From an uncultured Gammaproteobacteria bacterium (GTDB lineage Bacteria; Patescibacteriota; Microgenomatia; UBA8517): a stretch of DNA of 53,342 nucleotides. The notes under the pieces are model-generated. The model saw only the letters and a list, made by a program, of their open reading frames with translations, was not told the DNA's origin and did not search any database. The stretch lies in assembly GCA_964627195.1 (NCBI GenBank), contig CAZVJU010000006.1, forward strand, positions 6,200-59,541. The letters run 5' to 3'. A program made the position numbers and the translations under genes. Positions 9,805 to 25,567 of this stretch are shown in pieces (the first letter of the stretch is position 1; each line of letters starts with the position of its first letter).

Positions 9805-10597
9805 GACTACTTTAGACAAGGTAGACAAAAAAGAGACAAACAAGGATACGCAAAATCAGCCGGTGGGAGGTTATCTTACTCAAATGAAGGAGCTTCCGCC
9901 GCAGGAGGAGGCTATTGCGACAAAAGTAAAAACCGAGTCAGAAAAACCACCTCTTCAGGAGACAAAAGAGGTCGGTAAGGTGACTAAAGGTGAGCCACAG
10001 AAAGAAGATAGAAAGGATATGGCTGAAGATCCATTGGAGCAAGAACTTTTTGGGGAAGAGAAATCTTTTCGGATTCCTTTATCATCAAAAGATGTAATTT
10101 TAGGAATAATTAACATTGTTTCCGTGATTTTTTTGATTATTATTCTTTTTCAGTTTCCTAAAAAAGCACAGGAGCTGAAGAGTTTGAGAGTGGAGGAGTA
10201 TCTGAATGAAGCTACGGAAACCTTTGAATTTGAGGAAATGGAGCTAAATAGACAGAAGTCCGAAAAGCTGCAGACATTTTTTACCGACGAGTCGGGAATA
10301 GTTGAGTTTGTGAATGAACTTGAAAAAATCGGGTCTGCCAGCGGGGTTCTTAAAAACGTTACTTTTGCCAACCAAGTGCCTGTAAAGGATAAGGCCGGAA
10401 GTTTTGGAATTCCAATCGTAATCGATCTCGAAGGCAGTTGGGAAGGTATCGATCAAGATTTACAAAAAATTGATAAATTAAGTTTCCTCATAAGACCTGT
10501 CAAGGTGGATGTAGAACCTTCCGAAGATGAGCCGGGAGTGATACTATTTAAGTACGGAGTTATTTTGTATGTTAACGATACAAAATTCGCACAATAG
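9794..10597 (+). CDS. PilO-like protein
   Basis: Follows pilMN; single TM helix and ferredoxin-like C-terminus (I.LEGSW..I...L..I..L). Confidence 0.6.
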   Translation: MITKTTLDKVDKKETNKDTQNQPVGGYLTQMKELPPQEEAIATKVKTESEKPPLQETKEVGKVTKGEPQKEDRKDMAEDPLEQELFGEEKSFRIPLSSKDVILGIINIVSVIFLIIILFQFPKKAQELKSLRVEEYLNEATETFEFEEMELNRQKSEKLQTFFTDESGIVEFVNELEKIGSASGVLKNVTFANQVPVKDKAGSFGIPIVIDLEGSWEGIDQDLQKIDKLSFLIRPVKVDVEPSEDEPGVILFKYGVILYVNDTKFAQ

Positions 10598-10713
10598 TGC
10601 GACTTTTGTAAGCAGAGCTTGGCACCACTTTGTGTTGTGGCATATGATATCTGTAAACTGGGAGAAAATAAGTAAATAATATTATTTACTTGGCATATTC
10701 TTGATATATATAT

Positions 10714-10953
10714 ATGAATTTAAGTGAAACATTAGAATCTGTAGATAAATTTTATATCGTCTTTGCAGCAATTCTTATCCTTTTGGCTGTAATGGTTATA
10801 TTCTCTTTTCGTGGGCTCTTTTCAGCTTATCTGACGGCATATGAAATCGGTCAGAAAGACTTGGGAAATAGCGTAAGAATAGATAAAGGTAACATGGAAG
10901 AAGCTGATAAATGGGTGTCAAATAAAGAAACCTTACCATTAGAAATTAGATGA
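10714..10953 (+). CDS. Small membrane protein upstream of pilin
   Basis: One TM helix; ATGA overlap with pilin gene. Confidence 0.55.
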   Translation: MNLSETLESVDKFYIVFAAILILLAVMVIFSFRGLFSAYLTAYEIGQKDLGNSVRIDKGNMEEADKWVSNKETLPLEIR

Positions 10954-11435
10954 TGAAAAATAATAAGATTGTTCTTGCTGTTAAACGGGGTTTTACATTG
11001 ATCGAGCTTCTGGTTGTTATAGCCATTTTGGGAATTTTGTCGACTGTTGTGGTTGTAGCAGTTAATCCGGCACGACAGCTTGCCAAAGCTCGAGATGTCC
11101 AAAGGGAAACCGATCTGATAGGGATTATGTCGGCAATCCTGCAATATTCTTCGGAACATAGCGGATCTTTGCCTGATACAGACGGTGATCCGGATATTAG
11201 TAATTTCCCCGGCGCAGCTACCTGTATGGGTTCGGATGCGGGTTGTTTTGACCTCGCGAATTCAGGCGATGTAGGAGATGAAATTGTTCCTGTTTATTTG
11301 GTTGAAATACCGGCCGATCCGCAAGCGGATGATCCAGTGGGAAACACAGAGTATACGATATATGTAGATGTAAATGGTCGACTCCATGCCGCAGCCATAG
11401 GCGAAATTAACAATCCGATTACGGTAGATAGATAG
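10950..11435 (+). CDS. Type IV major pilin-like protein
   Basis: RG|FTLIELLVVIAILGIL, NP..QL.KARD..R, cysteine pair, IP.DP. Confidence 0.92.
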   Translation: MMKNNKIVLAVKRGFTLIELLVVIAILGILSTVVVVAVNPARQLAKARDVQRETDLIGIMSAILQYSSEHSGSLPDTDGDPDISNFPGAATCMGSDAGCFDLANSGDVGDEIVPVYLVEIPADPQADDPVGNTEYTIYVDVNGRLHAAAIGEINNPITVDR

Positions 11436-11492
11436 TTTTAAAAAGTTTGTCTTCAAATTAGCCCTATTATGAAATCATGGTAAAATCGGATT

Positions 11493-11831
11493 ATGGATTT
11501 TATTGACAAAAAATTAACACTAAAAGAAATTTTACATCTGCGCAATAAATATGGCGTTTATATGAAGCTTACAATTGACGTTGAAAACAGATGGGTTATT
11601 GTCGGAGGAGAATTGCATGCTGACGGCGAAAAGTTGTTGCTTGAGAAAGGAAGTAAACAAAAAGATATTTGGGGCGGGGGGATTAATTTTTTGGATAAGG
11701 AAGTAGATACAACAGCAGTTCTCAATATTCGACCACGATTGGATAACGACAATCTAGAAATATTGGATTCAGAAATCCGCAAAAAATTTTATGATATTAT
11801 AAAAAAGTTTTTTGAAAAATTATGGCACTAG
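11493..11831 (+). CDS. DUF5674-like protein
   Basis: K..IDVE....VGGELHAD.E..LL..GS.Q..IWGG, NIRPR..N. Confidence 0.75.
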   Translation: MDFIDKKLTLKEILHLRNKYGVYMKLTIDVENRWVIVGGELHADGEKLLLEKGSKQKDIWGGGINFLDKEVDTTAVLNIRPRLDNDNLEILDSEIRKKFYDIIKKFFEKLWH

Positions 11832-12082
11832 ATAAATACGATAATGTTTCTGATGCCGTTGCCGATCTTTATCGTGCGTCCTACTATTTGGCTAAAAAAT
11901 CAAAAGATGTTGGGATATTGTTTTTATTAAAATCAAAGAAAAGGTTAGGGGAAAAGTTAACTTTGGACATAAATAAAATAGTAAAAGGAAATGTCCTTAA
12001 CCGTTCTTATGACTATTATTATTGGGCTGAAAAGGTTCTTGATGAGTACAAAAGGTTAAAAATGATTTTGTCTTCGAATTAG
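11822..12082 (+). CDS. Hypothetical helical protein, partner of DUF5674 gene
   Basis: Overlaps upstream gene; its last codons LSSN* are supplied by repeat A copy 2. Confidence 0.65.
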   Translation: MALDKYDNVSDAVADLYRASYYLAKKSKDVGILFLLKSKKRLGEKLTLDINKIVKGNVLNRSYDYYYWAEKVLDEYKRLKMILSSN

Positions 12083-12126
12083 CCTTAGAGTAAAATTGGT
12101 CACTATTCACCAGAAGAAATGTAATT

Positions 12127-12774
12127 ATGGTAAAGAAATCATTTACTGAACTTACGAAAATAGAGCGGAGCGTTTTAGACAAACTTGATACCCCTACAAA
12201 AATTCAAAAGTTTATTGACGAAAAAATTACCTATGATCCGGTGAAAGAAGATAGAAGTGTCAGGGAAGTAATTAGGGATAAAAAAGCCGAGTGTTACAAC
12301 GGAGCGATTTTCGCGGTAGCGTGTTTATTCCATAACGGCTATAAAGCATCGATCATTGAACTTCTCGCCCGGGATGACGAGGAGCACATTTTATGTGCCT
12401 ATCAAGTCAATGGAAGATATGGGTCAATTGCCCAAAGTAAATTCTTAGGCCTTAAAGGGCGAAACCCCATTTATAAAACTCTGCATGATTTGGTAGTGAG
12501 CTACATGGAATTTTATTTTGCGTTTGACGGTAGGTATACTCTCTTATCACATACCAAACTTCTTCCCCTTTCTAAATATCACAACAAATGGTTTTCCGAC
12601 AGCGGCGTAGTTAGGAAAATGGCAAAAGATTTGCGTGAGTCAAAACATGTAAACCTAATCGGTCCGGAAGACTCATTTTCTTACGTGTCTTACGAGCGGT
12701 TTTGGAAAGAGATTTTGGTTTTGCCGAAGGGAATAACACTTTCCAAAGATTATCTTCCCCGACCGAAGAAATAA
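12127..12774 (+). CDS. Transglutaminase-like hypothetical protein
   Basis: L.TP.KIQ.F, C..GA.FA, D..H, YG.I..S.F.GL..R.P pattern. Confidence 0.6.
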   Translation: MVKKSFTELTKIERSVLDKLDTPTKIQKFIDEKITYDPVKEDRSVREVIRDKKAECYNGAIFAVACLFHNGYKASIIELLARDDEEHILCAYQVNGRYGSIAQSKFLGLKGRNPIYKTLHDLVVSYMEFYFAFDGRYTLLSHTKLLPLSKYHNKWFSDSGVVRKMAKDLRESKHVNLIGPEDSFSYVSYERFWKEILVLPKGITLSKDYLPRPKK

Positions 12775-12845
12775 AAAGTACAGCAATTAAGTAGTGGGTT
12801 TCCGAATTTGTCCGCAAATTATATCTGGAGTAGAATATTGAAAGA

Positions 12846-13391
12846 ATGTCTGTAAGTATCACATATTTTGTTCATGGAACAACAATTGATAATGAAAAAG
12901 GGATTTCCTCGGGTTGGTCGGATACTGAACTTTCAGAGTTGGGTAAAAAACAGTCGAGAGATTTAGGAGAAAAAACTAAGGATAAAAAATTTGATGCTGT
13001 GTTTTGTTCTGATTTAAAAAGAGCAGTGGATTCTGCAAATATTACTTTCGGCGGAAGTTTTAAAGTTATTCAGGACCAAAGACTTCGCGAGTGTAACTAT
13101 GGAGATTTGAATGGTAACCCTTCGGAAATTGTTGATCCGCTGCAGGAAAAAAATATTATAAATAAATTTCCCAATGGCGAAAGTTATGAAAACGTAAAGG
13201 AAAGAATTCAAGATTTTTTGACTTTCCTGAAAAAGAATTATGACGGGAAATCTGTCGGAATTGTTGCCCATAAAGCACCTCAACTAGCACTGGATGTTTT
13301 AGTAAAAGGCAAAACTTGGGAGGAAGCTTTTGCCGAGGACTGGCGGAAGAAAAAAGCCTGGCAACCTGGGTGGGACTATGTTCTCGAATAA
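12846..13391 (+). CDS. Histidine phosphatase (phosphoglycerate mutase) family protein
   Basis: HG.T..N, SDLKRA, RLRECNYG, PNGES, VAH motifs. Confidence 0.9.
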   Translation: MSVSITYFVHGTTIDNEKGISSGWSDTELSELGKKQSRDLGEKTKDKKFDAVFCSDLKRAVDSANITFGGSFKVIQDQRLRECNYGDLNGNPSEIVDPLQEKNIINKFPNGESYENVKERIQDFLTFLKKNYDGKSVGIVAHKAPQLALDVLVKGKTWEEAFAEDWRKKKAWQPGWDYVLE

Positions 13392-13425
13392 TTTGCCTTC
13401 AAATTTACTCCGGAGTGATTATAGC

Positions 13426-13462
13426 TTGACAATATCTACATGAAGTATATACTGAGTATATA
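13426..13462 (+). promoter_or_regulatory. Own promoter and operator of the TA cassette
   Basis: TTGACA (13426)-16 nt-TATACT (13448), overlapped by palindrome TATATACT-G-AGTATATA. Confidence 0.7.
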
Positions 13463-13758
13463 TGAGTACAGCTGTTATAAATATCAAAACTGATGTGAAG
13501 ATAAAAAGCCAGGCACAGAAAATTGCTTCAGATTTAGGTTTTAGCCTTAGTGCTTTAATCAATGGTTATCTTAACCAGCTAATTAAAACCAAGACGGTTC
13601 ATTTTTCCGCTACGGAAGAAATTCCCAGCGAATTTATGATACAAGCTCTTAGAGAGTCGGAAGAAGATAGAAAGAAGAAAAGATTTAAGTCTTTTGATTC
13701 CGCTGATAAGGCCTTAGGATATTTAGATAAAATAATTAATGAAGGTAAAAAGAATTGA
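13462..13758 (+). CDS. RelB/DinJ family antitoxin
   Basis: INIKTD..IK..A..IA..LG.SLS..IN RHH-like N-terminus; overlaps toxin gene. Confidence 0.85.
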   Translation: MSTAVINIKTDVKIKSQAQKIASDLGFSLSALINGYLNQLIKTKTVHFSATEEIPSEFMIQALRESEEDRKKKRFKSFDSADKALGYLDKIINEGKKN

Positions 13759-14011
13759 TTTTTCGAAGAGGTTTGAAAAAGATTTAAAGAAGGCCCCGGT
13801 AAAAATTAGAAAAGCTTTCAGAGGAAGAATCGAAATATATCTTACGGATAAATTTAATCCCATTTTGAATAATCACGCGTTGACTGGCAGGCTTGAGGGT
13901 TATAGGAGCATTAATGTAACAGGCGATTGGAGAGCTATTTTTAGAGAGTTAGAGAGCGGAGAAATTGTTTATTTTGACTTTTTGGGTACACACAGCCAAC
14001 TTTATAGATAG
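13739..14011 (+). CDS. RelE/YafQ family mRNA interferase toxin
   Basis: F.KDLKK, NHAL.G...GYRSI.VTGD.R, GTHSQLY C-terminus. Confidence 0.9.
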   Translation: MKVKRIDFSKRFEKDLKKAPVKIRKAFRGRIEIYLTDKFNPILNNHALTGRLEGYRSINVTGDWRAIFRELESGEIVYFDFLGTHSQLYR

Positions 14012-14144
14012 TTCTATTAAAGAATAATTTATCTTCAAACCGAATCGGAAATTAATGATAGAAATCATAGTAGAATAACGTAAAGGCACGAGATTCTGAT
14101 ACACAGTCTTGAGAGTAAAAAACGGTGATTTGTAGATTTAAGAT

Positions 14145-14421
14145 ATGGCAAAAGTAGCAGGCAAATATTGGTTTAAGGCCAAGAATTATGGCTGGGGATG
14201 GTATCCGGCAACTTGGCAAGGATGGTTAATTTTGGCAGGATTTATTTATCTTAATTATTGGTAATTATCAAGAAATTGATTCTCAGTCCCATTCCATAAG
14301 TGACACTTTACTAAACTTCATACCCCGGGTGTTGGTGTTGACTCTTCTTTTAATCGCAGTTTACTTCCTGACCGGCGAGAAACCGGAATGGCGATGGGGT
14401 GGGAAGAAAATTAAAATGTAA
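14145..14421 (+). pseudogene. Frameshifted small membrane protein (WFKAK.YGWGW.P...GEKP.WRWG type)
   Basis: MAKVAGKYWFKAKNYGWGWYPATWQGW...YW* continues in the +1 frame as NYQEIDSQSHS...TGEKPEWRWGGKKIKM*; 277 nt, one extra base near 14261. Confidence 0.8.
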
Positions 14422-14471
14422 AACCATAGGATTGTCTTCGAATTAGCTCCGGAGTAGAATTATTTTAAGCT

Positions 14472-14578
14472 AATTCAAGAAGTCCACCGCTTTAGACGTG
14501 GATGAATTGAATCATTGAAAATTCATTCGCCGAAGGCGAATGTAGCTCGAAGGACCACGGCATAAGAGGTGGACTTCT
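14472..14578. mobile_element. ~100-bp MITE/PATE-like palindromic element
   Basis: 11-bp inverted repeats AGAAGTCCACC (14478) and GGTGGACTTCT (14568); inner hairpin CATTCGCC-GAA-GGCGAATG; CCAC...GTGG hairpins at both ends. Confidence 0.55.
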
Positions 14579-15519
14579 ATCTGAGGTTGTTAACCTCGCT
14601 GCGGTATAGAACTTACACTATTTTGAAAAAGAGAAAAAAATCAATACCAACTTTAGTGGGAATTCTACTGCTGATGATTGGAATTTTATCGGGTCTCCTT
14701 CTTATTTCAAGAAGACAAATTTTTGTGCAAAAGGCAGCGCCAAATACAACACTTAATCTTATTCCCAGCACGAATAATCTTAAAGTGGGTGATAGTTTTA
14801 GTGTGTTTGTGAACATAGATACGGGCAGTAATACTTTCATTGGGGCAGAACTTTATTTAGATATCGAGCCGGTGTCACTACTGGAAATTACTGACATAAC
14901 AAGCGGTGATTTCCTTCCAGTTACCGGCGAAGAAGTTAAATCGATAGACAATTCCGTAGGTAAAATAGAGTATTTGGTTTACCTCATACCCGGGAGTGAG
15001 ATTACTCCGTTAAAAGGCAAAGGAACTTTGGCGGTGATTTGGGCAAAAGTCTTGAAAGAAGGGTCGGTAACTATCAGTTTTAACCCAAAAAGCCAGACTG
15101 CTACAAGTGATGAGGATGCGGGTCAGAATTTGTTGGCAAGTGCAGAATCTCTACAGATTTTGATAAATAGCGATAGAGAGTTAACTGAAACCTCGGCTCC
15201 TATTTCTTTAACACCAACCGGGATTTCAGAAAAGAAAATTTCGCCGACACTAACTCCCGGAAAAAGTGAGTTACCAAAGGTTAAAAAGTCGCCTACTACT
15301 GTACCGACTGACTTTCCATCGCCGGTCGTTTTTGACGAACCGGGCCGCGAGGATGAAGAAAACAGTAGCTGCGTGGATTTCGGCTATTTGTTTTTAGTGA
15401 TTAGAAGATTGGGAAGAGATGTGAATCCCGGTACTGATGGAGATTTTACAAACGACGGACAAGTAAGTTTCACTGACTTATTTGCAGTTTTAGGCGAGAT
15501 TAAACTTAGGTGTAACTAG
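14569..15519 (+). CDS. Membrane-anchored cohesin-domain protein with Pro/Thr linker and dockerin-like C-terminus (true start probably TTG near 14623)
   Basis: TM helix, VGD.FSV.V.IDT..GAEL, G.GTLA.I, GDFTNDGQVSFTDL EF-hand-like loop. Confidence 0.7.
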   Translation: MDFYLRLLTSLRYRTYTILKKRKKSIPTLVGILLLMIGILSGLLLISRRQIFVQKAAPNTTLNLIPSTNNLKVGDSFSVFVNIDTGSNTFIGAELYLDIEPVSLLEITDITSGDFLPVTGEEVKSIDNSVGKIEYLVYLIPGSEITPLKGKGTLAVIWAKVLKEGSVTISFNPKSQTATSDEDAGQNLLASAESLQILINSDRELTETSAPISLTPTGISEKKISPTLTPGKSELPKVKKSPTTVPTDFPSPVVFDEPGREDEENSSCVDFGYLFLVIRRLGRDVNPGTDGDFTNDGQVSFTDLFAVLGEIKLRCN

Positions 15520-15566
15520 CCGCTCGGTTTTCTTGTCTTCAAATTATCTCCGGAGTAGAATGTGAT

Positions 15567-16349
15567 TTGATGAAAGTTAAAGTTGCTGTTTTGCAGTACG
15601 ATGTTCCCGAGGAGTCTGATACTTCTTTTAAAAAATTAAACGAGATGATTTTGCAGGCTGGGTGGGCTGGAGCGAGACTAATAGTTGCTCCTGAAACTGC
15701 TGTCGGAGAAGTTGGGGAATTGAAAGAAAAAGACATAGATTATTTTTCAAGACTCGCAGAAATTGCAAAGAAACACAGCGTTTTTCTAGCTACAAGTTTT
15801 TACACAAAAAAAGACGGTAAATTTTATAACCAAGGCCATATTATTTCCCCTGAGGGTAAATCTGTTGTATCGCACAGAAAAATGTATCCGGCAAAACCGG
15901 AGATAGAAAATATCGGTGTAGTTGCTGGAAGTTCTTTAGAAGTCAAGAAAACAGAAATCGGTAAACTTGGTATGCTTATTTGTAAAGATGGATTTAATAA
16001 ATATTCCCACTTTTTGTACGACAAATTTAATTCGTTGGGGATAGAAATAATTTGTATTCCGACCTGGTCTATTGGTTGGAAGGAGATGAACACTGAAGAA
16101 TATGTAAAAGCACTGTATGTGTACGGAGCTTTTACAAGTCGATCATTTATTCTTATGTCGGGTAATTTGAATATGTCTTTTAACTCATACGGGAGGTCCC
16201 TAATAGTTAGTCCGATAAAGGGTATTTTGAAAGAGGGAAGTAGTAATCACAAAGAAATTCTTTATGAAGAATTGGATTTAGATGAAGTTGCTAAAGCCCG
16301 AAAGTTTGATTCCTGGTGGCAGCCGAAAAAGAAAATTGACATCGAATAA
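15567..16349 (+). CDS. Carbon-nitrogen hydrolase (nitrilase superfamily); start probably ATG 15570
   Basis: E-K-C triad motifs: VAPE, HRKM, GMLICKD; G.S.IVSP. Confidence 0.9.
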   Translation: MMKVKVAVLQYDVPEESDTSFKKLNEMILQAGWAGARLIVAPETAVGEVGELKEKDIDYFSRLAEIAKKHSVFLATSFYTKKDGKFYNQGHIISPEGKSVVSHRKMYPAKPEIENIGVVAGSSLEVKKTEIGKLGMLICKDGFNKYSHFLYDKFNSLGIEIICIPTWSIGWKEMNTEEYVKALYVYGAFTSRSFILMSGNLNMSFNSYGRSLIVSPIKGILKEGSSNHKEILYEELDLDEVAKARKFDSWWQPKKKIDIE

Positions 16350-16386
16350 TTTGTCTTCAAATTAGCTTCAGAGTAAAATTGTTACA

Positions 16387-16848
16387 ATGAAATATCAAGT
16401 CCCGGAGGTGGGTGAGATTGAAATTAAGACAATTATACTCGACCTTAATGGCACACTTTCTGTCAATGGAAAAATTCCTGACGGGGTAAAAGAGAGATTA
16501 AAAAAACTAAAGGACTTGGGTATAAAGGTTATTTTACTTACGGGTGATCAACGAGGAACTGCTGCAGATTTATGCAAAGAATATGGAATAGACTTTGTTC
16601 GTACAAAGAATGGCAAAGAAAAAGAAGCAGCAATGAAATCTTTTGATTCAGAAACAACCGCCGCAATTGGGAATGCAAGGATCGATATCGGAACTTTTAA
16701 ACACGCGAAAGTGTCTCTTGCTACATTGCAATCTGAAGGTGTTCACATGGGGATTATTTGTAACGTAGATGTGGTTGTTCCATCCATAAATGACGCGTTG
16801 GATTTCTTTATAGACTCCGATATTTTTTGCGTAACTTTGCGAAAATAA
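16387..16848 (+). CDS. HAD-family soluble P-type ATPase-like protein
   Basis: LDLNGTL, LTGD..GT, AIGN..ID motifs. Confidence 0.85.
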   Translation: MKYQVPEVGEIEIKTIILDLNGTLSVNGKIPDGVKERLKKLKDLGIKVILLTGDQRGTAADLCKEYGIDFVRTKNGKEKEAAMKSFDSETTAAIGNARIDIGTFKHAKVSLATLQSEGVHMGIICNVDVVVPSINDALDFFIDSDIFCVTLRK

Positions 16849-16893
16849 TTCTCTTCAGATTAGTACTTCTAAAGAGTGTAAAATTTAAAAAAT

Positions 16894-17250
16894 ATGAGTG
16901 AACAGACATCACCTGTTGATGATTATTTGTTGCCGTTAGTTCAAAGAGTTTTAAGAGTTTTTCCTGCATGGAAAGTATTTGCTTTTCAAGGAGCTCTAAC
17001 TGCCGTTCTCGTTGGGTGGGGTATTGACTATACTTTGGCAGATGGTTTGGTGTATCTATCCTTTAACTTTTTATTCTTGTGGTTACTTTACAGGAAATTC
17101 GGAAGGGTCAGGGATACGAAGATTTTTGTTTACGGATTTGCTGGGATAAGTGTTTTGCTACAGCTTCTGATATTCTTTCCGGGAATTGAGAGTGCAATAG
17201 GAGAAGTTTATTTTAGGATTTATTGTTTGATAACAAAAGTGTATTGTTAG
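16894..17250 (+). CDS. Hypothetical membrane protein
   Basis: Three hydrophobic segments; fills one repeat-delimited cassette. Confidence 0.65.
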   Translation: MSEQTSPVDDYLLPLVQRVLRVFPAWKVFAFQGALTAVLVGWGIDYTLADGLVYLSFNFLFLWLLYRKFGRVRDTKIFVYGFAGISVLLQLLIFFPGIESAIGEVYFRIYCLITKVYC

Positions 17251-17309
17251 TATAATCGAAAAATATAAATTTGTCTTCAAATCAGCTCAAAGTTTTAATA
17301 TGTTTGGCG

Positions 17310-18005
17310 CTATCGATACAATTTGGTTTGCAACATTTTAATCTCTCGTATGAGTTTCTTGGAAATTACTTTAGGATAGTTTTTGAGCGGTTTTAGCTCG
17401 CTTCCAATCCCTTGTGTTTCAGGGATATCTTTTTTACCACCTTTATTTTGCTTGAGAATACCTTGCCGGCTCTGCCGCGAGGATGAACGAGCATAAGTAC
17501 TGCTATCTGAAAGATACTTCGCTGCTCTGCCGCGATGCAGTTCATTTTGAAACTTTTGCCATGTGTTGTATCCGTCTTCAGTTAGGTGCATTGACCCTGT
17601 ACAGCTATCACTTTTGCACAAACAGTTATGACTGCAGGGGTTGCAAGTCATTTTGGGAGGAAGTAAATATGAAATAGTTAATTCAGATCCTTTCCTAATG
17701 TTTTTTAATGCAAAAACAATAGTGTGGTTTCTAAATTTAGTTATCCAGCAATTCGGAGAGCAGGAATGATTAAGGAGATAAATGCCGGGCTTTTTTAAAT
17801 CGGGGTAAATACCGGTCTCGTCGTCGTAATACATTAAGTATAAGTTTTTCTTTTCCTTCTCAAAATCGACATCTTTTAACTGAACCACTTTGCCCACGTA
17901 ATCACCAATCACTACTCCTTGCCTAATTGGTTTATTGGCAAAAACCCCTCTTCCTTTATTCTTTGTTTTTTTAATTTCCCAATAAACTTCGGGCAATAAA
18001 AACAT
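17310..18005 (-). CDS. SET-domain protein with post-SET cysteines
   Basis: KGRGVFA, NHSCSPN, ELTISY, CLC....C.G motifs. Confidence 0.9.
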   Translation of the reverse strand: MFLLPEVYWEIKKTKNKGRGVFANKPIRQGVVIGDYVGKVVQLKDVDFEKEKKNLYLMYYDDETGIYPDLKKPGIYLLNHSCSPNCWITKFRNHTIVFALKNIRKGSELTISYLLPPKMTCNPCSHNCLCKSDSCTGSMHLTEDGYNTWQKFQNELHRGRAAKYLSDSSTYARSSSRQSRQGILKQNKGGKKDIPETQGIGSELKPLKNYPKVISKKLIREIKMLQTKLYR

Positions 18006-18141
18006 ATGCTAATTTACCATACATTTTCAATTATAGTTCTGATTTGTCTTCAAATTAGCTCTGGTGGGAATACTCTATTTCCATTTATATGTAAGGCTTG
18101 TATAGTAGTGAGAAGTTTGGATCTTTAACACACTTATTTTA

Positions 18142-18948
18142 ATGGATCAATTTATTCTGCATTACCCTGTGCTATCTGCTCTTATAGCTGGCATATTTGC
18201 CTGGGGATTAACGGCGCTTGGTGCGGCAGGCGTATTTATTTTTCGGACAGTTAGCCAAAAGTTATTGGATTCAATGCTTGGGTTTGCTGCGGGCGTTATG
18301 ATTGCAGCGAGCTTTTGGTCATTGCTTGCTCCGTCAATAGAGCTTAGTGAGCAGATCGGTGTGGTAAAGTGGATTCCGCCAGTCATTGGGTTTTTAGTTG
18401 GAGGGTTTTTTTTGTGGCTTGTTGACAAGATTTTACCCCATTTGAATATCGGACAATCAAAATCTCATCCCGAAGGGATACCTACCAATTGGCATACAAC
18501 TGTTCTGCTTTTTTTAGCCATAACATTTCATAATTTTCCTGAAGGATTAGCAGTCGGTGTTGCTTTTGGAGCAGCTGCGGCTGGTATACCGGGGGCCAGT
18601 GCTGCCGCTGCAATGGCCTTAGCGATAGGTATCGGAATACAGAATTTTCCCGAGGGGTTTGCTGTCTCAATGCCATTTAGACGGGTAGGAGTAACGAAGC
18701 TTAAAAGTTTCCTCTTTGGACAGGGTTCAGCGCTTATTGAACCGATTGCAGCGGTAGTAGGCGCGGTAGGGGTATTGGCTATGCGTCCGCTTTTACCTTA
18801 TGCACTGGCATTTGCAGCAGGAGCGATGATTTATGTTTCGGTTGAAGAAATAATTCCTGAGTCGCAGAAAAATGCGACTGATGTTGCAACGATTGGCGCA
18901 ATGCTGGGATTTGCAATAATGATGGTTCTGGATGTTGCTCTCGGGTAG
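18142..18948 (+). CDS. ZIP family metal transporter (GufA/ZupT type)
   Basis: GFAAGVM, HNFPEG, QNFPEG, AFAAGAMIYV..EEIIPE. Confidence 0.93.
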   Translation: MDQFILHYPVLSALIAGIFAWGLTALGAAGVFIFRTVSQKLLDSMLGFAAGVMIAASFWSLLAPSIELSEQIGVVKWIPPVIGFLVGGFFLWLVDKILPHLNIGQSKSHPEGIPTNWHTTVLLFLAITFHNFPEGLAVGVAFGAAAAGIPGASAAAAMALAIGIGIQNFPEGFAVSMPFRRVGVTKLKSFLFGQGSALIEPIAAVVGAVGVLAMRPLLPYALAFAAGAMIYVSVEEIIPESQKNATDVATIGAMLGFAIMMVLDVALG

Positions 18949-18988
18949 TCTTAATCTTCAATTGATTCTTCCGAAGTTTTTCCAGATG

Positions 18989-20419
18989 TCAGCTTCCCGA
19001 CTGCGGTTCAATCCAAGAATTTCCGTCCGCCTCGAGAAGTTCATCTGCCTCTTTTGGTCCCCAGGAATCCGGTTGATAAAGAGAAACCTTCCTTTTCATT
19101 TCCAAAAGTGCATCCACGAATCTCCAGCCCTCTTGCACTTCTTGCGCGTCGGTGAAAAAAGTCTGATCTCCTGAGAATGCGTCATAGAAAAGCCTCTCAT
19201 ATGCATCGGGTATTTCCAAATTAGAGGCGGGGTAAGAAAAATACATTGGATACGAATTTAAAAGCATTTTATGTCCAGGTCTTTTAATAAGAACATCAAG
19301 ACCAATGCCTTCATCCGGCTGAACTCTATAAGTTAGTACATTAGGTTTATCTCCCAAATCAAATTTTGAAAAAAGTCTATCTTCTGCAACTTTAAAAACT
19401 ATTTTTATTTCGGTTACCCATCTAACCAATTTTTTGCCGGCACGAATATAAATTGGAACCCCTCTCCAACGACTGTTTCGAACTTCTGTTTTTAATGCAA
19501 AAAAAGTTTCTGTTTGGGAATTTTTGTCTATATTCTCTTCGTAAAGATAGCCGTTGTATTGGCCAAAGACAACTTTGTCAGGGAACGGTTTTAGAACTTT
19601 TAGGATTTTTACTCTTTCTGCCGTTACCGCCTCGTTTGAAAACTGTCTCGGCGGATCCATTGTCGATAGGGCAAGCATTTGCAATAAGTGATTTTGGCCG
19701 ACATCTCTTAATGCTCCGATTGAATCGTAATATCTACCCCGCTCTCCGATGCCGAAATCCTCAGATGCCGTTATTTGGATTTGGCTGACGTGTTTTCTAT
19801 TCATCAAATGCTCGAAAATGCCATTATTAAAACGAAAAATTAATAGGTTTTGCAGAGTTTCCTTTCCCAAATAGTGATCGAGGCGAAAAATCTGGTCTTC
19901 CGAAAAATATTTTCGAAGTAAAGAGTCTAGGACATTAGCGCTGGGTAAATCTCGGCCGATTGGTTTTTCAATGATAAGCCGAGTCCAGCCGTTTTTCCTG
20001 GCATTTAGTTTAGAGTGGGCAATTGATTTAAAAATCTTGTCGTAAAGGTCAGGGTAAGTTGCCAGATAAAAGATGATGTTAGAAAAAGTGTTGGTTTCAA
20101 TAATCTTTTTCAGCGACGAATATACTTTTTTGGCGCTTTTTTTATCGTTAACATCACCTTGTAAGTAGAGCATATTTCTAAGGAGCTTGTCAGCAGTTTC
20201 AGGATCAATTGCGCGGTGGTGGTGTCGGTTTTTTCTGGCTAAGACTTCGAGGATGAAGTTTCTGAATTCACTTTTTGAATAAGGTTTCCTGCCGATTCCG
20301 GCAACTATGAACTTTGCCGGAAGAAGGTTTTTGTCAAAAAGATCATAAAGCACGGGGATAAGCTTTATTTGCGACAGGTTCCCTGTAATTCCAAAAACAA
20401 CCAATGCAAAAGAATCCAT
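18989..20419 (-). CDS. zwf: Glucose-6-phosphate 1-dehydrogenase
   Basis: FG.TGNL, IIEKP.G.D, RLDHYLGKE, DVGQNHLLQ, RWRGVP...RAGK. Confidence 0.95.
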   Translation of the reverse strand: MDSFALVVFGITGNLSQIKLIPVLYDLFDKNLLPAKFIVAGIGRKPYSKSEFRNFILEVLARKNRHHHRAIDPETADKLLRNMLYLQGDVNDKKSAKKVYSSLKKIIETNTFSNIIFYLATYPDLYDKIFKSIAHSKLNARKNGWTRLIIEKPIGRDLPSANVLDSLLRKYFSEDQIFRLDHYLGKETLQNLLIFRFNNGIFEHLMNRKHVSQIQITASEDFGIGERGRYYDSIGALRDVGQNHLLQMLALSTMDPPRQFSNEAVTAERVKILKVLKPFPDKVVFGQYNGYLYEENIDKNSQTETFFALKTEVRNSRWRGVPIYIRAGKKLVRWVTEIKIVFKVAEDRLFSKFDLGDKPNVLTYRVQPDEGIGLDVLIKRPGHKMLLNSYPMYFSYPASNLEIPDAYERLFYDAFSGDQTFFTDAQEVQEGWRFVDALLEMKRKVSLYQPDSWGPKEADELLEADGNSWIEPQSGS

Positions 20420-20529
20420 GTAGCTTAAAAAGTATCATACTCTTTGACCGCTATATTTCAATGCCGTATTTTTTAAACTCTGAGTCAATTCGTTAGCAAA
20501 AATAGAAGAGAATTTATTATAATAATGCT

Positions 20530-21054
20530 ATGAGTGAATCTAAACATCTCGATGAATTGGGGGAAATTAATTTAGCATCGGAATGTTATGTGCTTAAAGA
20601 CGGGAAAGTCTTGATGTTTAAAAGAAGCGGTACGGCAAGTAAGTTTCCCGGCTTTTGGATTGGGCCGGGAGGACATATAGATCATGACGAAGACGCTCTT
20701 CTTGCAGCCGTGCGGGAGATTGAAGAGGAAGCAGGAATAAAGGTTGATCTTGATGATATTAAATTAAAAGCAATTGCACTTCATCACCATCTTGATAGGA
20801 GAGAGGTGTGGGTCTCTTTTGTTTTCCTTGCGACCATTAAAGAAAATCAGGTTGAGAAAAAAGAGGACGTAGAGGGAAAGGCAAAGTGGATTCCGTTAGA
20901 GGAACTTCTGGTAATGGACAACGTGTTTCCTCCATCAAAGTATTATTTTGACCATGTTTTGAATGATAAAAAGGGAATACTTTATACTAATATTCAATGG
21001 GATAACGCCCAACTAGTTAAAGTCCTCAATCAACGAGTAGATAAAAACGGTTAA
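20530..21054 (+). CDS. NUDIX hydrolase
   Basis: PGG.....E....AA.REIEEEAG Nudix box. Confidence 0.9.
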   Translation: MSESKHLDELGEINLASECYVLKDGKVLMFKRSGTASKFPGFWIGPGGHIDHDEDALLAAVREIEEEAGIKVDLDDIKLKAIALHHHLDRREVWVSFVFLATIKENQVEKKEDVEGKAKWIPLEELLVMDNVFPPSKYYFDHVLNDKKGILYTNIQWDNAQLVKVLNQRVDKNG

Positions 21055-21123
21055 GACCTCATTTCCTCCACTCCAGTCATTTTTTAACCAATTAAGTAAT
21101 TAAGATGTACAATTAATTAATTC

Positions 21124-21798
21124 ATGCACAATATATCTAAGATACTAAAATTCTTAATTTTTATTATTCTTTACCTATCATCTTTGGTTAGTATAGGCTA
21201 TATTTTCAGTATATTTTTCCATGATTTAGGAGTGTTTATAAGTTTTATACTTGTATTTTTAGCAATTTTTTGGAGTAGCAGGTATCTTAGAAAAAGAAAT
21301 CCGGATAAGTTCATACAAAAATCATCCAAATTTTCAATAGCATATTTTTTTCTAACCGTTTCTTTAAGTTTCTTTTTACTTAGTCTGGTCTTTGATTCCG
21401 TTAAAATTGACTGGACTCGTTTTGTAAACGAAAACACTGCTTATAAAGGTATCTTGGATGCAACAGTTCTCCCTATATTTATTTTGTTTCCGGCATTCGC
21501 TACTATCTATCCTGTCTGGAGGCTTTATAGCCGTAAAAAGGGGTTATTGGTAAATACTGTTATTGCGTTTTTATATGTTTCGTTTTGGATATTGATGCTT
21601 TATTTATTTGCCAGGAATATTTTCGGTCTAGAAAGTCTTTTACATACTGTTGGGGATACTATTAACTATTATTACGAAATTATTGCTGCGATTCTGATAG
21701 TGCCTTTGCTAAAGTTTACTGTCGGATTCCTTCCGCTAGGGTGGTTTTATGAACTTTTTGTTGGAACAGTTGCACCTCAAAGTTTATCGAAGGGATAG
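21124..21798 (+). CDS. Hypothetical polytopic membrane protein
   Basis: About 6 TM segments; very AT-rich. Confidence 0.7.
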   Translation: MHNISKILKFLIFIILYLSSLVSIGYIFSIFFHDLGVFISFILVFLAIFWSSRYLRKRNPDKFIQKSSKFSIAYFFLTVSLSFFLLSLVFDSVKIDWTRFVNENTAYKGILDATVLPIFILFPAFATIYPVWRLYSRKKGLLVNTVIAFLYVSFWILMLYLFARNIFGLESLLHTVGDTINYYYEIIAAILIVPLLKFTVGFLPLGWFYELFVGTVAPQSLSKG

Positions 21799-21896
21799 AA
21801 AGTACTCTTTAGCAAGCAGAGTTAGATTGCAATTCAAGACCCCATTTCTTCCCTTCTTTCGCAGACAGGCACGGCTTCTGTTAAAATATTAAAGTT

Positions 21897-22337
21897 ATGA
21901 AGATTATTAAATATTCCGATTCATACCGGAAGAAAGTTAAAGATTTTGTAATTTCGGTTCATGAAGAATTTGGTTTTCCTTACAATTATGAGTTGGATTA
22001 CGATTTAGACGACCCTGACAAATACTACAAAGATCAGAGAGGAGTCTTTTATCTTCTTCTGGATGACAGAAATCCTGTAGGGGACAGTAGCAGTTAAGAA
22101 TTTAGGAAATAAAAAAGCAGAGCTAAAAAGGTTATATCTTATGAAAGAGTATAGGGGAAAAGGATTGGGACGTAGACTTTTGACTAAGGCCTTGGATTTT
22201 TGTAGAGAAAAAGGATTTAAACAAGTGGTATTTGATACAAACAAAAAACAAATAACAGCCCGAAGTTATATAAGAAAAATGGATTTAAAATCGATCGAGT
22301 TATTAAAAACACACTTTTTATGTTGAAGGATTTCTAA
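21897..22337 (+). pseudogene. GNAT acetyltransferase with two frameshifts
   Basis: Extra G in GTAGGGGACA (~22081) and a missing base near 22261; joined product reads ...PVGTVAVK...AELKRLYL..EYRGKGLG...KLYKKNGF. Confidence 0.85.
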
Positions 22338-22373
22338 ACCTATTTCCTCCCTGCTGGCGCAGGCAAGCGCGCC

Positions 22374-22790
22374 TTATTTTCCTTTCAGCTTTTTGAGCCA
22401 GAGGTTTTTGAAGAAAGGGAGAGTGAGAGTAGAAAGTAAAAAGCCGACTGAGGGAACGATTGCGTTTAGCCAAGGATTTTTAATTTTTATGGCGTTTAAA
22501 TAAAGTCCAATCGAAATGTAAGTAAAAAGAATTAATAAAAGTCTTCTGGTGTAGCTTATCTCCCAGGCTTTATCCGCCTCAACCCTTTTATCCCCCTTCG
22601 CGAAATACAACAAGCGTAAGCTTATCAATGAAAGCGAAGAATATTTCGCTTCGGAGGGATTTTGCTCCCGACGAAGCGAGGGGAGAAGCTACCGCGAGCG
22701 CCTGCCTGCGCAGGCAGGTAAGCTCGAGGGAGATTCATTTCTCGACTCAATTTCTTTAATTCTTTTTTCCAGTTCCGGCAACTTTTCCAT
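22374..22790 (-). pseudogene. Small membrane protein (IE.RNKRVEADKAWE type) interrupted by a 147-bp insertion
   Basis: MEKLPELEKRIKEIESRN joins KRVEADKAWEIS once 22590-22736 is removed, giving 89 aa. Confidence 0.8.
22590..22736. mobile_element. 147-bp structured GC-rich insertion (MITE-like)
   Basis: Pairing ends (ATCTCCCTCG and CGAAGGGGGAT on minus strand), palindrome CCTGCCTGCGCAGGCAGG, hairpin TCGCTTCG..GGGA/TCCC..CGAAGCGA, possible AT duplication. Confidence 0.7.
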
Positions 22791-22876
22791 GTTTCAATTT
22801 TACCACTTAGTATACCCAATTCGAAACCATTTCCTCTGGATATTGAATTTTTTTAAAAGCTTGCTAGCATTTAGTT

Positions 22877-23113
22877 ATGGTACTCTACGAAATTATTGGT
22901 TGGACTGGGACTTTGGCAATTCTTTTGGCATATTTTCTTGTTTCCTCAAAAAAGATTTCTCCCGACGACAAGAACTACCAATTATTAAATCTGATTGGAA
23001 CAATTGGTATCATTATAAATTCGGCAGTTCATGGAGCAATTCCTTCTGTTGGACTCAATGTTGTCTGGCTTCTTATTGCTATCTATGGATTACTAAAAGT
23101 GGTGAAGAAGTAG
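22877..23113 (+). CDS. Small 3-TM protein (CBU_0592-like)
   Basis: IGW.G...IL.AY, YQLLNL.G, LN.VW..I motifs. Confidence 0.8.
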   Translation: MVLYEIIGWTGTLAILLAYFLVSSKKISPDDKNYQLLNLIGTIGIIINSAVHGAIPSVGLNVVWLLIAIYGLLKVVKK

Positions 23114-23171
23114 ATTCCTTAAAATCCTCTTCTGAACTTGAACAAGTTTATATAAGTCCTATAATTACGGT

Positions 23172-23603
23172 ATGGTAACTGTCGAACTTTCCAAAGCATC
23201 TGTAATAAGTTCGCAAGAAATTTCGCTCACGAATTATCAAACTTATAGAAGTGAGGGAGGGATTTTGAATTCTGAATCCTACGGGATGCTGGAAAGTTTT
23301 ACCGGGTTGAAGAATCGTTCCTTAAGAGTAAGTACATTTAATATCCCAAGAAGCCAAGCTATTTCTATGGCAACTTTTGCAAAAATAGAACTGGTTGAAG
23401 AGGAAATCGGGATGTACGTTCTTCTCAGAACGCTTCCACCAAGTAAAGAGAGTACCTCTGAAGAATTAACTTTAAACCCAGAACAGTTATCAGACCAAGT
23501 TCTTTTGGCTGAGATTCTTCGTTTTACTAAGTCTACTCAACGGGAAGAATTTATAAAAAAGTATCCAAATATTTTTTCTCCGGTAGGGCAGGTACACGAC
23601 TAG
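23172..23603 (+). CDS. Hypothetical protein
   Basis: 143-aa ORF preceded by TATAAT. Confidence 0.6.
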   Translation: MVTVELSKASVISSQEISLTNYQTYRSEGGILNSESYGMLESFTGLKNRSLRVSTFNIPRSQAISMATFAKIELVEEEIGMYVLLRTLPPSKESTSEELTLNPEQLSDQVLLAEILRFTKSTQREEFIKKYPNIFSPVGQVHD

Positions 23604-23673
23604 TAAAATAGGCTTTACAGAAATAGTTTTAGGAGATATCTCAGTTTAAATTTTCTAAATGATAGAATTGGCT

Positions 23674-24327
23674 ATGGCAACTAAAGATAAGTTTATTAGA
23701 CTAAACATAGCAATTGTTACTCCCAAAAATATTGCAGAAGAAGTAATCAGGATTAGTCAGAAATTTTAAGAGCTTGGCGACACAAGCTTTATACTTAATG
23801 GAGAGGATTTTCACCCTCATATTACTTGTTATTCTCCAGAATTTCCTACTAAGAATATAAACAAGATTATTGAGGAAGTAAGTTTGATTGCTAAAGGATA
23901 CAAAAGCTTTGAAGTCAAAATGAATAAGTTGCAGATTATTAAGGAGGGTGATTCCTATGGTGTGATAGTATCTTTCAGGAAAAGTAAAGAGATTGATAAA
24001 TTACATAGATTAATAATAAAAAAACTTAATCCTTTGAGAGAAGGTCATATACGTGAGATATACAAAGATCCGGATTACATCAAAAGGTTTTCAAAAGGCA
24101 AACGTAGTTTAATAAAAAAAATACTGTTTGAAGTAGGGTATCCTAGAGCTCTAGATGCATACGACCCACATATTTCAATAACAAGATTCGGATCTCCTAT
24201 TTGGAGAAAGGATATAGAATTGCCGCGATTTAATTTTAGAAGAATGTGGATAAAGGAAATTGGAATTTTTACTATGGGTGAGTATGGTACTTGCAGAAAA
24301 CTGATCCATAAATTTACATTGAAATAG
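23674..24327 (+). pseudogene. 2H-phosphoesterase (2'-5' RNA ligase-like) gene with internal nonsense codon
   Basis: ATG 23674 is in frame with ORF 23884; single TAA at 23767-23769; both HxT/S motifs present (PHITC, PHISI). Confidence 0.8.
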
Positions 24328-24371
24328 AATTTCTCGCTGTACCCACTTCCTCCGCAACTTCGCAATTTTTT

Positions 24372-24656
24372 CTAGGGCAATAACAGAGTAAATAGCCATA
24401 AGGGTAGAGAAAGGAGAGTGAGAACACTCAATTTCCCCACACTCTTTCTTTTTAAGACGATGAAAGATCCTATTATTCCAAATAAATCTAAGGGATAGGT
24501 TACATAATTACAAACAGGTTGACACCATAGATGGGATCGGTGGAATAAATTTGTAAACAAGTTATCAATTCTGAAAGTTTGTAATACATCCCGTATTAAA
24601 TGATAGGTTGAGAAAATTAAAATGAGAATAAACAGATATCGTAAATACTTAGTCAC
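24372..24656 (-). CDS. Small membrane protein (probable start GTG near 24656)
   Basis: YHLIRDVLQ...H.WC...C hydrophobic ORF; the longer called N-terminus runs through repeat B and the next intergenic region. Confidence 0.6.
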   Translation of the reverse strand: MTKYLRYLFILILIFSTYHLIRDVLQTFRIDNLFTNLFHRSHLWCQPVCNYVTYPLDLFGIIGSFIVLKRKSVGKLSVLTLLSLPLWLFTLLLP

Positions 24657-24779
24657 TAGTTTAGTATATAAGAAAACGAGCCCATCTCCTCTGGGACTAA
24701 CAGAGATTTTTTTAAAAAGATTTTGTATAATCGCACTAGATTTTAATTTAAAAATGAAGGAGGTGAATTTACAAAAAAA

Positions 24780-24977
24780 ATGACAGGAATTGAGCGAACA
24801 GATCAAACTGATGCAATCCAGAGAGCAGAAGCATCTATAGCCGAATTAAGAGAGGATCTTCAAGTACCAGACGCTCACTTAGAGATATCTGTTGGTAGGG
24901 ATAGTGTTACGGCTGATATCGTAAGTGACTTACCGGATGCTGGAAATCTGGCAAAGGGTGTTACGAGGCCGATATAA
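24780..24977 (+). CDS. Hypothetical 65-aa protein
   Basis: Strong SD AAGGAGGTGA upstream. Confidence 0.55.
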   Translation: MTGIERTDQTDAIQRAEASIAELREDLQVPDAHLEISVGRDSVTADIVSDLPDAGNLAKGVTRPI

Positions 24978-25021
24978 ATCATTAGTTAGTTCTCGAGATT
25001 TTCGATTACGCTAAAGTAAAT

Positions 25022-25516
25022 ATGGAAAGTGAAAGAAACTTTGAAGAGTCTTTTTATAAGGCACCTTATTCTGAAGGTTGTCCCGGCTGCAATAGGATAG
25101 AACCGCAACCCGAAGGATTAATAATTGTTTATGAAGACGATAAATTTAGAGTTCATCAAGACTATGCATTACCAATTCCGGGAATGATGGTAGTTGAATC
25201 TAAAAGGCATATAAAAAGTATTTCTGATTTTACACCTGAGGAATTAAATAGGTACTCTTTAGTGCTAAGGAAAGTAAGAGACGCCTTGGGTAGCATAGGA
25301 GTAGAGAATGCGACCCTGATACAAGAAGAAAAAAGTTCACATTTTCATGCCTGGTTTTTACCGATATATCCGTGGATGGCGAATGTGACTAGCGGAAAAT
25401 TAAGGAACATTCAGGAAATATTTGATTACGCTAAAGGGAACATGGTTACCGATCAACATATTTCTGAAGTGGAAAAAGCAACTAAGGCTATAAAAGAGTA
25501 TATGGAATCGGAGTGA
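25022..25516 (+). CDS. HIT-family hydrolase
   Basis: CPGC, PIPG..VV..KRH, HFHAW motifs. Confidence 0.85.
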   Translation: MESERNFEESFYKAPYSEGCPGCNRIEPQPEGLIIVYEDDKFRVHQDYALPIPGMMVVESKRHIKSISDFTPEELNRYSLVLRKVRDALGSIGVENATLIQEEKSSHFHAWFLPIYPWMANVTSGKLRNIQEIFDYAKGNMVTDQHISEVEKATKAIKEYMESE

Positions 25517-25567
25517 AAGTAATTTTCTCGCAAGTAAATCTGAAGCAAAGTTTTACCAATATAACTC

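Follow-up and report, generated by a model that had tools for sequence, protein, structure and literature searches.

The 53,342-nucleotide stretch analysed here, called the window below (positions 6,200 to 59,541 of contig CAZVJU010000006.1, assembly GCA_964627195.1), carries a series of small genes separated by a short repeat that keeps one orientation throughout. This array fills the interval from a type IV pilin-like gene to zwf, which we read directly from the sequence. The genome is 1.22 Mb in 52 contigs and, like all the genomes compared in this study, was assembled from metagenomes. An earlier note on the same DNA had described the interval as an integron-like cassette array without an integrase, with a repeat of about 30 bp at every cassette boundary, and had proposed a gene-capture and shuffling platform anchored at the pilin gene. 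The features of the interval and its surroundings are as follows, with the basis of an assignment given in brackets; L numbers denote array loci used in the comparisons.

10950..11435, + strand: type IV pilin-like gene with an N_methyl motif, standing to the left of an array only in this genome (Pfam)
11447..11475, +: repeat copy 1, no mismatch in the 16-mer core, poor left palindrome arm, variant right leader with -10 box TAAAAT
11493..12082, +: cassette 1, a DUF5674 gene (11493-11831; Pfam) and an overlapping 86-aa partner (11822-12082)
12068..12096, +: repeat copy 2, TTGTCT and TAAAAT separated by 17 nt
12127..12774, +: cassette 2, transglutaminase-like protein (Pfam)
12808..12836, +: repeat copy 3, core with four mismatches in the 18-mer, canonical right half TGGAGTAGAAT
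12846..13391, +: cassette 3, histidine phosphatase, His_Phos_1 (Pfam), recurring in L003, L004, L128, L130 and L133
13393..13421, +: repeat copy 4, three mismatches, TAA-T of the left arm overlapping the His_Phos stop
13426..14011, +: cassette 4, RelB/YafQ toxin-antitoxin pair (Pfam) with its own promoter TTGACA-16 nt-TATACT (13426-13453)
14029..14046, +: repeat copy 5, degenerate remnant (direct reading)
14145..14421, +: cassette 5, small membrane-protein gene in two frames (39 aa and 30 aa)
14432..14460, +: repeat copy 6, canonical 29-mer with one mismatch
14461..14580, +: strongly folding multicopy element of about 118 nt, resembling a miniature inverted-repeat transposable element (MITE) and outside the repeat family
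14569..15519, +: cassette 6, cohesin-domain protein (Pfam)
15533..15561, +: repeat copy 7, canonical
15567..16349, +: cassette 7, CN_hydrolase of the nitrilase family (Pfam), recurring in L003 and L123 at 79-85% amino acid identity
16351..16379, +: repeat copy 8, -10 box TAAAAT ending 7 nt before the ATG (leaderless geometry)
16387..16848, +: cassette 8, HAD-like hydrolase (Pfam)
16849..16884, +: repeat copy 9, degenerate, four mismatches in the 18-mer, -10 box displaced
16894..17250, +: cassette 9, 118-aa membrane protein of no Pfam family
17271..17288, +: repeat copy 10, core alone, lacking the canonical right half, ahead of an inverted gene
17310..18005, - strand: cassette 10, inverted SET-domain gene with its own promoter (Pfam)
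18044..18071, +: repeat copy 11, 18-mer core without mismatch
18142..18948, +: cassette 11, ZIP metal transporter (Pfam)
18952..18980, +: last copy, doubtful and very degenerate, lying between the stop codons of ZIP and zwf (direct reading)
18989..20419, - strand: zwf (glucose-6-phosphate dehydrogenase), right neighbour (Pfam)
21058..24695, +: four co-oriented copies of a second motif, M2 (CCCATTTCCTCCGCG-like, two to three mismatches), at about 21058, 22339, 24342 and 24681

Ten of the + strand copies of TTGTCTTCAAATTAGCTCCGGAGTAGAAT are clear, namely copies 1 to 4 and 6 to 11. Copy 5 is a recognisable remnant, TTATCTTCAAAC followed by diverged sequence, and the copy at 18952 is so degenerate that we count it as doubtful. 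A repeat at every boundary, as the earlier note had it, therefore holds for the ten clear copies and the remnant and is doubtful at the right end. The 16-mer TTGTCTTCAAATTAGC with at most three mismatches matches the 53-kb window nine times, in every case on the + strand and within 11447-18059; shuffled windows give 1.04 on average and five at most, and none of 100 reaches nine. The full 29-mer is found at three places with at most three mismatches, against none expected. The copies at 12808 and 16849 have four mismatches each in the 18-mer.

Direct reading of the interval bears out much of the layout described earlier. The distance from the upstream stop codon to the repeat is 0-33 nt, no copy lies inside the two-gene units (the DUF5674 and RelB/YafQ pairs), and the inverted SET gene has + strand copies on both sides. 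The cargo is indeed unrelated, the Pfam families being DUF5674, transglutaminase-like, His_Phos_1, RelB and YafQ, cohesin, CN_hydrolase, HAD, SET and ZIP. The partner of DUF5674 ends at a TAG within repeat copy 2, and this pair recurs in L003, L004, L123, L129 and L130; the RelB/YafQ pair is also found in L003 with the same promoter. Cassette 5 is probably decayed, with two stops on read-through, and the true start of the cohesin gene is probably near 14623, past the inserted element. The search of positions 10000-26000 against Rfam gave no match at E values up to 1, and terminator-like sites are no commoner than chance (8 found, 6.7 expected).

Anatomy of the repeat and expression of the cassettes

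The conserved unit is shorter than first described. We aligned 94 boundary copies from 22 oriented sources, with 72 intervals between successive copies. A canonical 29-mer does exist, but the conserved part measures only about 20 bp, AAT-TTGTCTTCAAATTAGCT(C). The core holds an interrupted palindrome, TAATTTG-TCTT-CAAATTA, and then GCT(C). Between -3 and +16/17 the information content is high, with a sharp drop on either side; positions 0-17 served for the selection of copies, which inflates the conservation there and does not affect the flanking positions. The median interval between copies is 731 bp (n=72), and 40 intervals hold one open reading frame (ORF) and 23 hold two; in 16 of the 72 all genes are on the minus strand. 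The gap between the upstream stop and TTGTC is most often 1 nt (15/56), because the TAA of the consensus AATAAT-TTGTC doubles as the stop codon. As single-stranded DNA the core forms only a weak 7-bp A/T hairpin, with folding energies of -3 to -4 kcal/mol (DNA) and z about -2.3 to -2.7 in two of the four window copies folded.

The DNA to the right of the core is specific to each cassette and usually includes a -10 box 6-8 nt ahead of the ATG. In the canonical form TAGAAT stands 17 nt past the core TTGTCT and the ATG follows 6-8 nt further on, an arrangement in which TTGTCT could be used as a -35 box. Hexamers of the -35 and -10 type 16-18 nt apart on the strand of the gene are found at five window copies. 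This sigma-70 spacing is absent before inverted genes (25/85 copies) and in most other copies, where the -10 box is further away. A -10-like hexamer lies just ahead of the start codon in 38 of 61 first cassette genes and a Shine-Dalgarno-like motif in four of the 61; among the ORFs of at least 100 aa in the whole genome the corresponding numbers are 217 of 1118 (directly before the ATG) and 110 of 1118. Leaderless translation seems to be common in this organism, judging from these counts. The -10 boxes and the few Shine-Dalgarno motifs, in a genome that hardly uses the latter, point to leaderless and individually promoted cassettes, with the right half of the repeat apparently serving each cassette as its promoter.

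A variant of the repeat was observed in other genomes and is absent from that of the window. It carries a conserved GC-rich insert of 17-18 bp (GGGACGTTYGACGTCC) in the middle of the palindrome, giving a longer, bulged hairpin, and usually adjoins an inverted cassette. Its sites include L004 8955, L127 7093 and 10404, L132 2222, and L126 7376 and 8920.

Distribution of the arrays and rearrangement at the repeat

The repeat is confined in this genome to two arrays plus one relic. At no more than two mismatches the 16-mer has 13 matches in the whole genome, all forward (seven on the window contig, five on contig C13 and a weak one on C31), and the reversed-pattern control has none. The genome-wide scatter of an ordinary promoter or operator, which the earlier note had considered, is not what we find, either with the 16-mer or with a 12-mer: all 16-mer matches bar the weak one fall in arrays. 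Those of C13 lie at the contig start and form the second array, which opens inside a partial copy of the inverted SET gene, 87% identical to that of the window. The similarity between the two SET cassettes ends in the repeat, and different cargo follows on C13: SWIM-like, HIT-like, an inverted 260-aa gene, PNPOx and a DUF5678 pair, each bounded by repeats.

The contig ends were examined as well. The first bases of C13 (L001 1-53), the start of C17 and the end of C32 share the same 52-55 bases, with a hairpin of 7-bp stem (TACGGGT...ACCCGTA) 10 nt from the junction. They terminate a multicopy element, the body of which is missing from the bin, and on C13 this terminal element interrupts the second SET gene copy.

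Arrays of this kind are found across Candidatus Woesebacteria. In a survey of 125 genomes of the family with the 16-mer as probe, 22 have a match with at most one mismatch, and at least 11 genomes from 10 genera have co-oriented clusters of two or more copies, each cluster on one strand; several genomes hold two or three arrays. In a scan of one genome per species, every locus with multiple matches was titled Candidatus Woesebacteria, and the canonical 29-mer was found on 22 metagenome contigs. The palindrome AATTTG-N4-CAAATT is absent from four of five complete array-less genomes; the fifth has one match with another centre, and there the reversed control matched too. The cargo across arrays comes from many unrelated families and includes several toxin-antitoxin pairs and decayed members. 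The pilin gene proved to be the anchor in this genome and not elsewhere: other arrays follow a conserved small-protein pair behind a glycosyltransferase-like gene, or an alpha/beta hydrolase pair. Contig C2 of this genome has the small-protein-pair anchor and then a single relic copy with four mismatches.

Cassettes recur across genera in different orders, as seen for the DUF5674 pair, His_Phos, RelB/YafQ, nitrilase, HIT, SET and NUDIX cassettes. The order of His_Phos and RelB/YafQ is reversed between the window and L003, with a repeat at each junction, and on two metagenome contigs two adjacent cassettes stand as X-Y (L150) and as Y-X (L155). In L126 and L132, from two species of one genus, the flanks are 87-92% identical whereas the cassettes between them differ. 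The strongest case is the comparison of L004 (genome G034) with L127 (genome G098). The flanking genes there have 67-71% DNA identity, and the cassette blocks reach 97% (1458 bp), 100% (228 bp), 94% and 85% in a permuted order, with all block ends inside a repeat. The near-identical blocks either run through TTGTCTTCAAATTAGCT and lose identity at the very next base, or start 2-3 bases ahead of TTGTC. Likewise the metagenome contigs L158 and L161, and L147, L153 and L161, share cassettes that are 99-100% identical and have unrelated DNA beyond the repeat. A gene order fixed among relatives, with breakpoints unrelated to the repeat, was the other outcome the earlier note had envisaged; the order differs and the breakpoints are in the repeat.

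We counted block ends over all non-duplicate sources, using the 59 blastn blocks of at least 80% identity and at least 200 bp, which have 90 internal ends. In both partners 44 of these ends lie no more than 25 bp from a boundary motif, the repeat accounting for 32 and M2 for 10, against 3.75% of all positions.

One cassette of the G034/G098 pair appears to have been caught in decay. The NUDIX cassette of G034 (L004 7953-8341) lacks 136 bp relative to the otherwise 94-100% identical copy in G098 (L127 8574-9098) and is split in two ORFs, as expected of a freshly decayed gene.

Could the shuffling be produced by metagenome assembly or binning at the repeat? Every genome used is metagenome-assembled, and C13 does start at a break induced by a repeated sequence. 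However, the repeat, at 20-30 bp, is shorter than the 52-55 bp overlaps found at contig ends, and the arrays sit between distinct housekeeping flanks. Several arrays are found again, at 99.7-100% identity, on independent metagenome contigs. The stretch is present in 20 public runs of 17 studies (Logan contigs; none of them an RNA run), and in the four runs compared with the window (X1, X5, X9 and X13) contigs span most of its junctions in the assembled order. The 14 joints listed from these contigs have 20-35 matching letters on their shorter side (25 or fewer in 12 of them), which is the length of the repeat, and hence they stem from cross-matching with other arrays of the community; the same cross-matching makes loose contig ends cluster at repeat positions. 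We give almost no credence to an artefact.

The comparison establishes the cassettes as modular, repeat-bounded units whose order and content differ among relatives, and it establishes that at least one pair of genera recently shared cassettes. Since the blocks end in the core, recombination occurs within it, and the crossover is not placeable more finely because the core is identical on both sides. Taken together, the data make it probable that the locus is an array of small, self-expressed cassettes, and that recombination within the repeat brings about their reordering, loss and gain and their transfer between Woesebacteria lineages.

Recombination, regulation and mobile hairpins

Several observations weigh against recombination at the repeat as the force shaping these arrays. 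The background of 3.75% overstates the enrichment of block ends at boundary motifs, as block ends fall in intergenic DNA anyway, and several of the compared contigs are kin and not independent. The cassette proteins are 70-87% identical between genera and a conserved ATPase is 69-85% identical, the G034/G098 pair excepted, and part of the cassette order is common to different genera; much of the array may thus be vertically inherited with slow turnover. No excision, circle or deletion junction was found in the Logan contigs, and such assembled contigs of public runs cannot reveal rare variants or circles. M2, a motif unrelated to the repeat, also marks block ends (10/90), as would be the case if recombination could use short homology in any conserved intergenic DNA. 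None of the arrays examined has a tyrosine or serine recombinase next to it, and no recombinase tracks the arrays across genomes: Resolvase is absent from G148, the bearer of the longest array, and Y1_Tnp-like proteins, which are encoded in 62 of the 125 genomes, are absent from the array-bearing G064 and present in many array-less genomes. Finally, the canonical arrangement of TTGTCT, 17 nt, TAGAAT and an ATG 6-8 nt on makes a plausible sigma-70 promoter, so a regulatory role is probably real for some copies.

The search for an enzyme covered the window's genome and other array bearers. Phage_integrase (PF00589) occurs in this genome on C11, C23 and C1, with no match on the window contig or C13; in four other array-bearing genomes it is never adjacent to an array, the nearest being about 11 kb away (G097:C14). 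Resolvase, searched in five array-bearing genomes, is likewise never adjacent to an array and has no match on the window contig or C13, so the statement that no recombinase lies nearby stands. The genes flanking the arrays belong to other Pfam families. A 287-aa Xer-like tyrosine recombinase is encoded in 118 of the 125 genomes and is the sole recombinase found in nearly all of them; being almost universal, its distribution is uninformative on the arrays, and nothing ties it to the repeat. Cas12f1-like_TNB is found in G097 only. DUF5674 was also considered as a candidate enzyme: it has no solved relative, and the Atlas search gave DUF5674 clusters only.

M2 appears to be a second family of sites in the same role. 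It is a co-oriented intergenic motif, CCCATTTCCTCCGCG, with its own cassette-like arrays adjoining those of the repeat, and all 26 copies with at most two mismatches are on the repeat's strand. In this genome it directly follows the repeat array on C13 (L001 4385-8189 and beyond) and lies past zwf in the window. A sub-variant of M2 is followed by CCAGAGGCGGGCAAGCG. The ZIP gene is bounded by the repeat in the window and by M2 in L125 and L133. Two further ideas on M2 loci were rejected. A hairpin with a covarying stem in M2 was not supported, as a pair count of 39 of 54 was reached at one position only and at most two adjacent positions exceeded 30 on any axis; and the SET gene of L128 (+ strand, between M2 copies) turned out to be a distant paralogue rather than an inverted copy of the SET cassette.

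The repeat, and M2 with it, might instead be primarily cis-regulatory, i.e. a promoter joined to the operator of a dimeric regulator over an island of accessory genes, with rearrangements as by-products of short homology. The core, a 7-4-7 palindrome, is operator-like, and two unrelated motifs mark block ends while no dedicated recombinase was found. Copies within one genome share a variant (AAAGTAGC in four of the five listed L003 copies), which fits a co-evolving binding protein. But the core is equally well kept where it cannot drive the next gene. Of 85 plain copies, 25 precede an inverted gene and 59 a + strand gene; the 16-mer core has on average 0.73-0.80 mismatches in the former and 0.86 in the latter, whereas the canonical right half is present in 3 of the 25 and 18 of the 59, the -10 part being mostly missing before inverted genes. 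The distance from core to start codon ranges over 30-147 nt and is 34-36 nt in only 14 of 61, which argues that the core is not a fixed -35 box. This variable distance and the equal conservation suggest that the core is maintained for something besides driving the next gene. Moreover, conservation in the spacer equals that of the -35 hexamer, each genome has the motif in just one or a few arrays, and no shared function unites the cargo. We regard a primarily regulatory role, the main rival, as unlikely, while giving it some weight.

A third explanation is that the repeats are selfish hairpins, similar to MITEs or to repetitive extragenic palindromic sequences (REPs), inserted between static genes and spread by Y1 (HUH) transposases of the type associated with REPs (RAYTs). 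REPs and the mosaic elements built from them (BIMEs) are likewise short palindromic extragenic repeats just after stop codons, a 7-bp hairpin is possible in the core, the genome has a true multicopy hairpin element, and it encodes seven Y1_Tnp-like ORFs. Known REPs, however, are spread genome-wide in both orientations and co-occur with a RAYT gene, whereas the copies described here are found in arrays only, each time on a single strand, and show no relation to the occurrence of Y1 genes. It is the genes between the repeats that change and not the repeats, near-identical cassettes have different neighbours, and the TAA of the repeat often serves as a stop codon. Selfish insertion is very improbable on this evidence.

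The seven Y1 transposase-like ORFs are paralogous and RAYT-like, and are located on C12, C3, C25, C8 and C30. Six are 221-238 aa long and one has 443 aa with a long C-terminal extension. They have the HUH-type motif NHxHL (NDFHL in the longest) and the Tyr, and six have RYIHLNP. Another genome, G113, holds 32 copies of IS200 type.

If recombination within the repeat is at work, the palindromic core with its asymmetric centre would be the crossover site, and a protein acting in trans may bind it. Such recognition is suggested by the conservation of the core across genera, its fixed orientation and the genome-specific variants. As to how the exchange comes about, we weigh a dedicated trans-acting recombinase and short-homology exchange, for instance after DNA uptake, about alike. 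We put forward with some reserve, as a view somewhat short of even odds, that the arrays are a cassette system unrelated to integrons, with short sequence-defined sites of at least two families (the palindromic repeat and M2) and a so far unrecognised trans-acting enzyme, whose self-promoted single-gene units are captured, reordered and passed between genera and which would be a main route of gene flux in these reduced genomes. Of the platform proposed earlier, shuffling and exchange at the repeat thus find support in the genome comparison, while a dedicated capture enzyme does not, as no recombinase correlates with the arrays and M2 behaves alike.

Comparison with known systems and related observations

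The arrays resemble integrons in function more than in their parts. In common with sedentary chromosomal integron arrays and with clusters of attC sites lacking integron-integrases (CALINs), they have co-oriented, mostly single-gene cassettes of 0.3-1.5 kb with a site at or overlapping the stop codon. They also share occasional inverted cassettes, self-promoted toxin-antitoxin cassettes, decayed members, an order varying among relatives, and a cargo rich in GNAT, NUDIX, HAD and unknown families; as in CALINs, there is no integrase in cis. Integron attC sites are imperfect inverted repeats of 57-141 bp, conserved in structure, with R''-L''...L'-R' boxes and GTTRRRY at the crossover, and integron cassettes are promoterless and expressed from a common promoter, Pc. 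Here, in contrast, the site is about 20 bp long and conserved in sequence, there is no IntI, attI or Pc, a second site family (M2) is present, and most intergenic spaces are 30-100 bp. The 29-mer contains neither GTTRRRY nor RYYYAAC on either strand, confirming the lack of attC ends, and most cassettes have their own -10 box and appear to be leaderless. The label integron-like is hence apt for the function, and not for the sites, the enzyme or the expression.

The pdif modules of Acinetobacter plasmids and related Xer elements offer another parallel. They have short sites of 28-30 bp with inverted arms and an asymmetric centre, their modules include toxin-antitoxin pairs, and the recombinase is a housekeeping enzyme encoded elsewhere, an architecture class with which the repeat is compatible. 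In Xer/dif-type sites a 6-bp centre separates two inverted arms, each about 11 bp long. The inner arms of the repeat, TAATTT and AAATTA, surround GTCTTC, and its outer arms differ. Sites of the pdif type alternate in orientation and resemble the host dif, whereas all copies here are direct and no link to dif was found.

Two other systems are more distant. Tandem accretion at an attachment site also yields successive units separated by direct core repeats. Such units, which are kilobases to tens of kilobases in size, occupy tRNA or other att sites and need the integrase of a neighbouring element; the units here are single genes with no integrase nearby. A shufflon inverts segments of a pilus adhesin gene by means of inverted repeats and an adjacent Rci-type recombinase, whereas the present arrays have direct copies throughout, non-pilin cargo and no adjacent recombinase.

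In the Candidate Phyla Radiation, bacterial genomes measure about 1 Mb and contain few recognisable mobile elements, and to our knowledge the way in which they acquire accessory genes is poorly understood. Among the papers listed on integrons in Patescibacteria and the Candidate Phyla Radiation, titles and the first parts of abstracts contain no description of these arrays or of the motif, and no paper turned up on integrons in Woesebacteria or with the 16-mer in its text; going by their titles, the papers listed on Patescibacteria and integron gene cassettes are resistome surveys. The arrays represent a modular, repeat-bounded organisation of accessory genes, with direct comparative evidence of reordering and of exchange between genera. 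Should a dedicated enzyme act on the 20-bp site, cassette genetics would have been invented a second time, independently, and the compact pair of site and recombinase might become a tool. Should the exchange be driven by homology at regulatory motifs, 20-30 bp of shared sequence would suffice to structure natural gene flux. Either way, metagenomes can be searched for variable gene pools with the 16-mer as a simple marker.

The right-hand neighbour of the array seems to be an accessory gene itself, as zwf is patchy in relatives: one of five related genomes searched with its protein has it, at 55% identity. A scan of metagenomes with the zwf protein gave 99 pattern matches, none of them confirmed.

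The element at 14461-14580 separates repeat copy 6 from the cohesin gene and appears to be a mobile hairpin of the MITE or REP type. Its ends are GAAGTCCACC...GGTGGACTTC, and its minimum free energy as RNA is -42.5 kcal/mol (z -6.2). Matches of at least 65 nt and 89-98% identity are found at seven other places in the genome (three on C3 and one each on C1, C11, C27 and C5). This element accounts for a spike in depth at its position in the Logan contigs.

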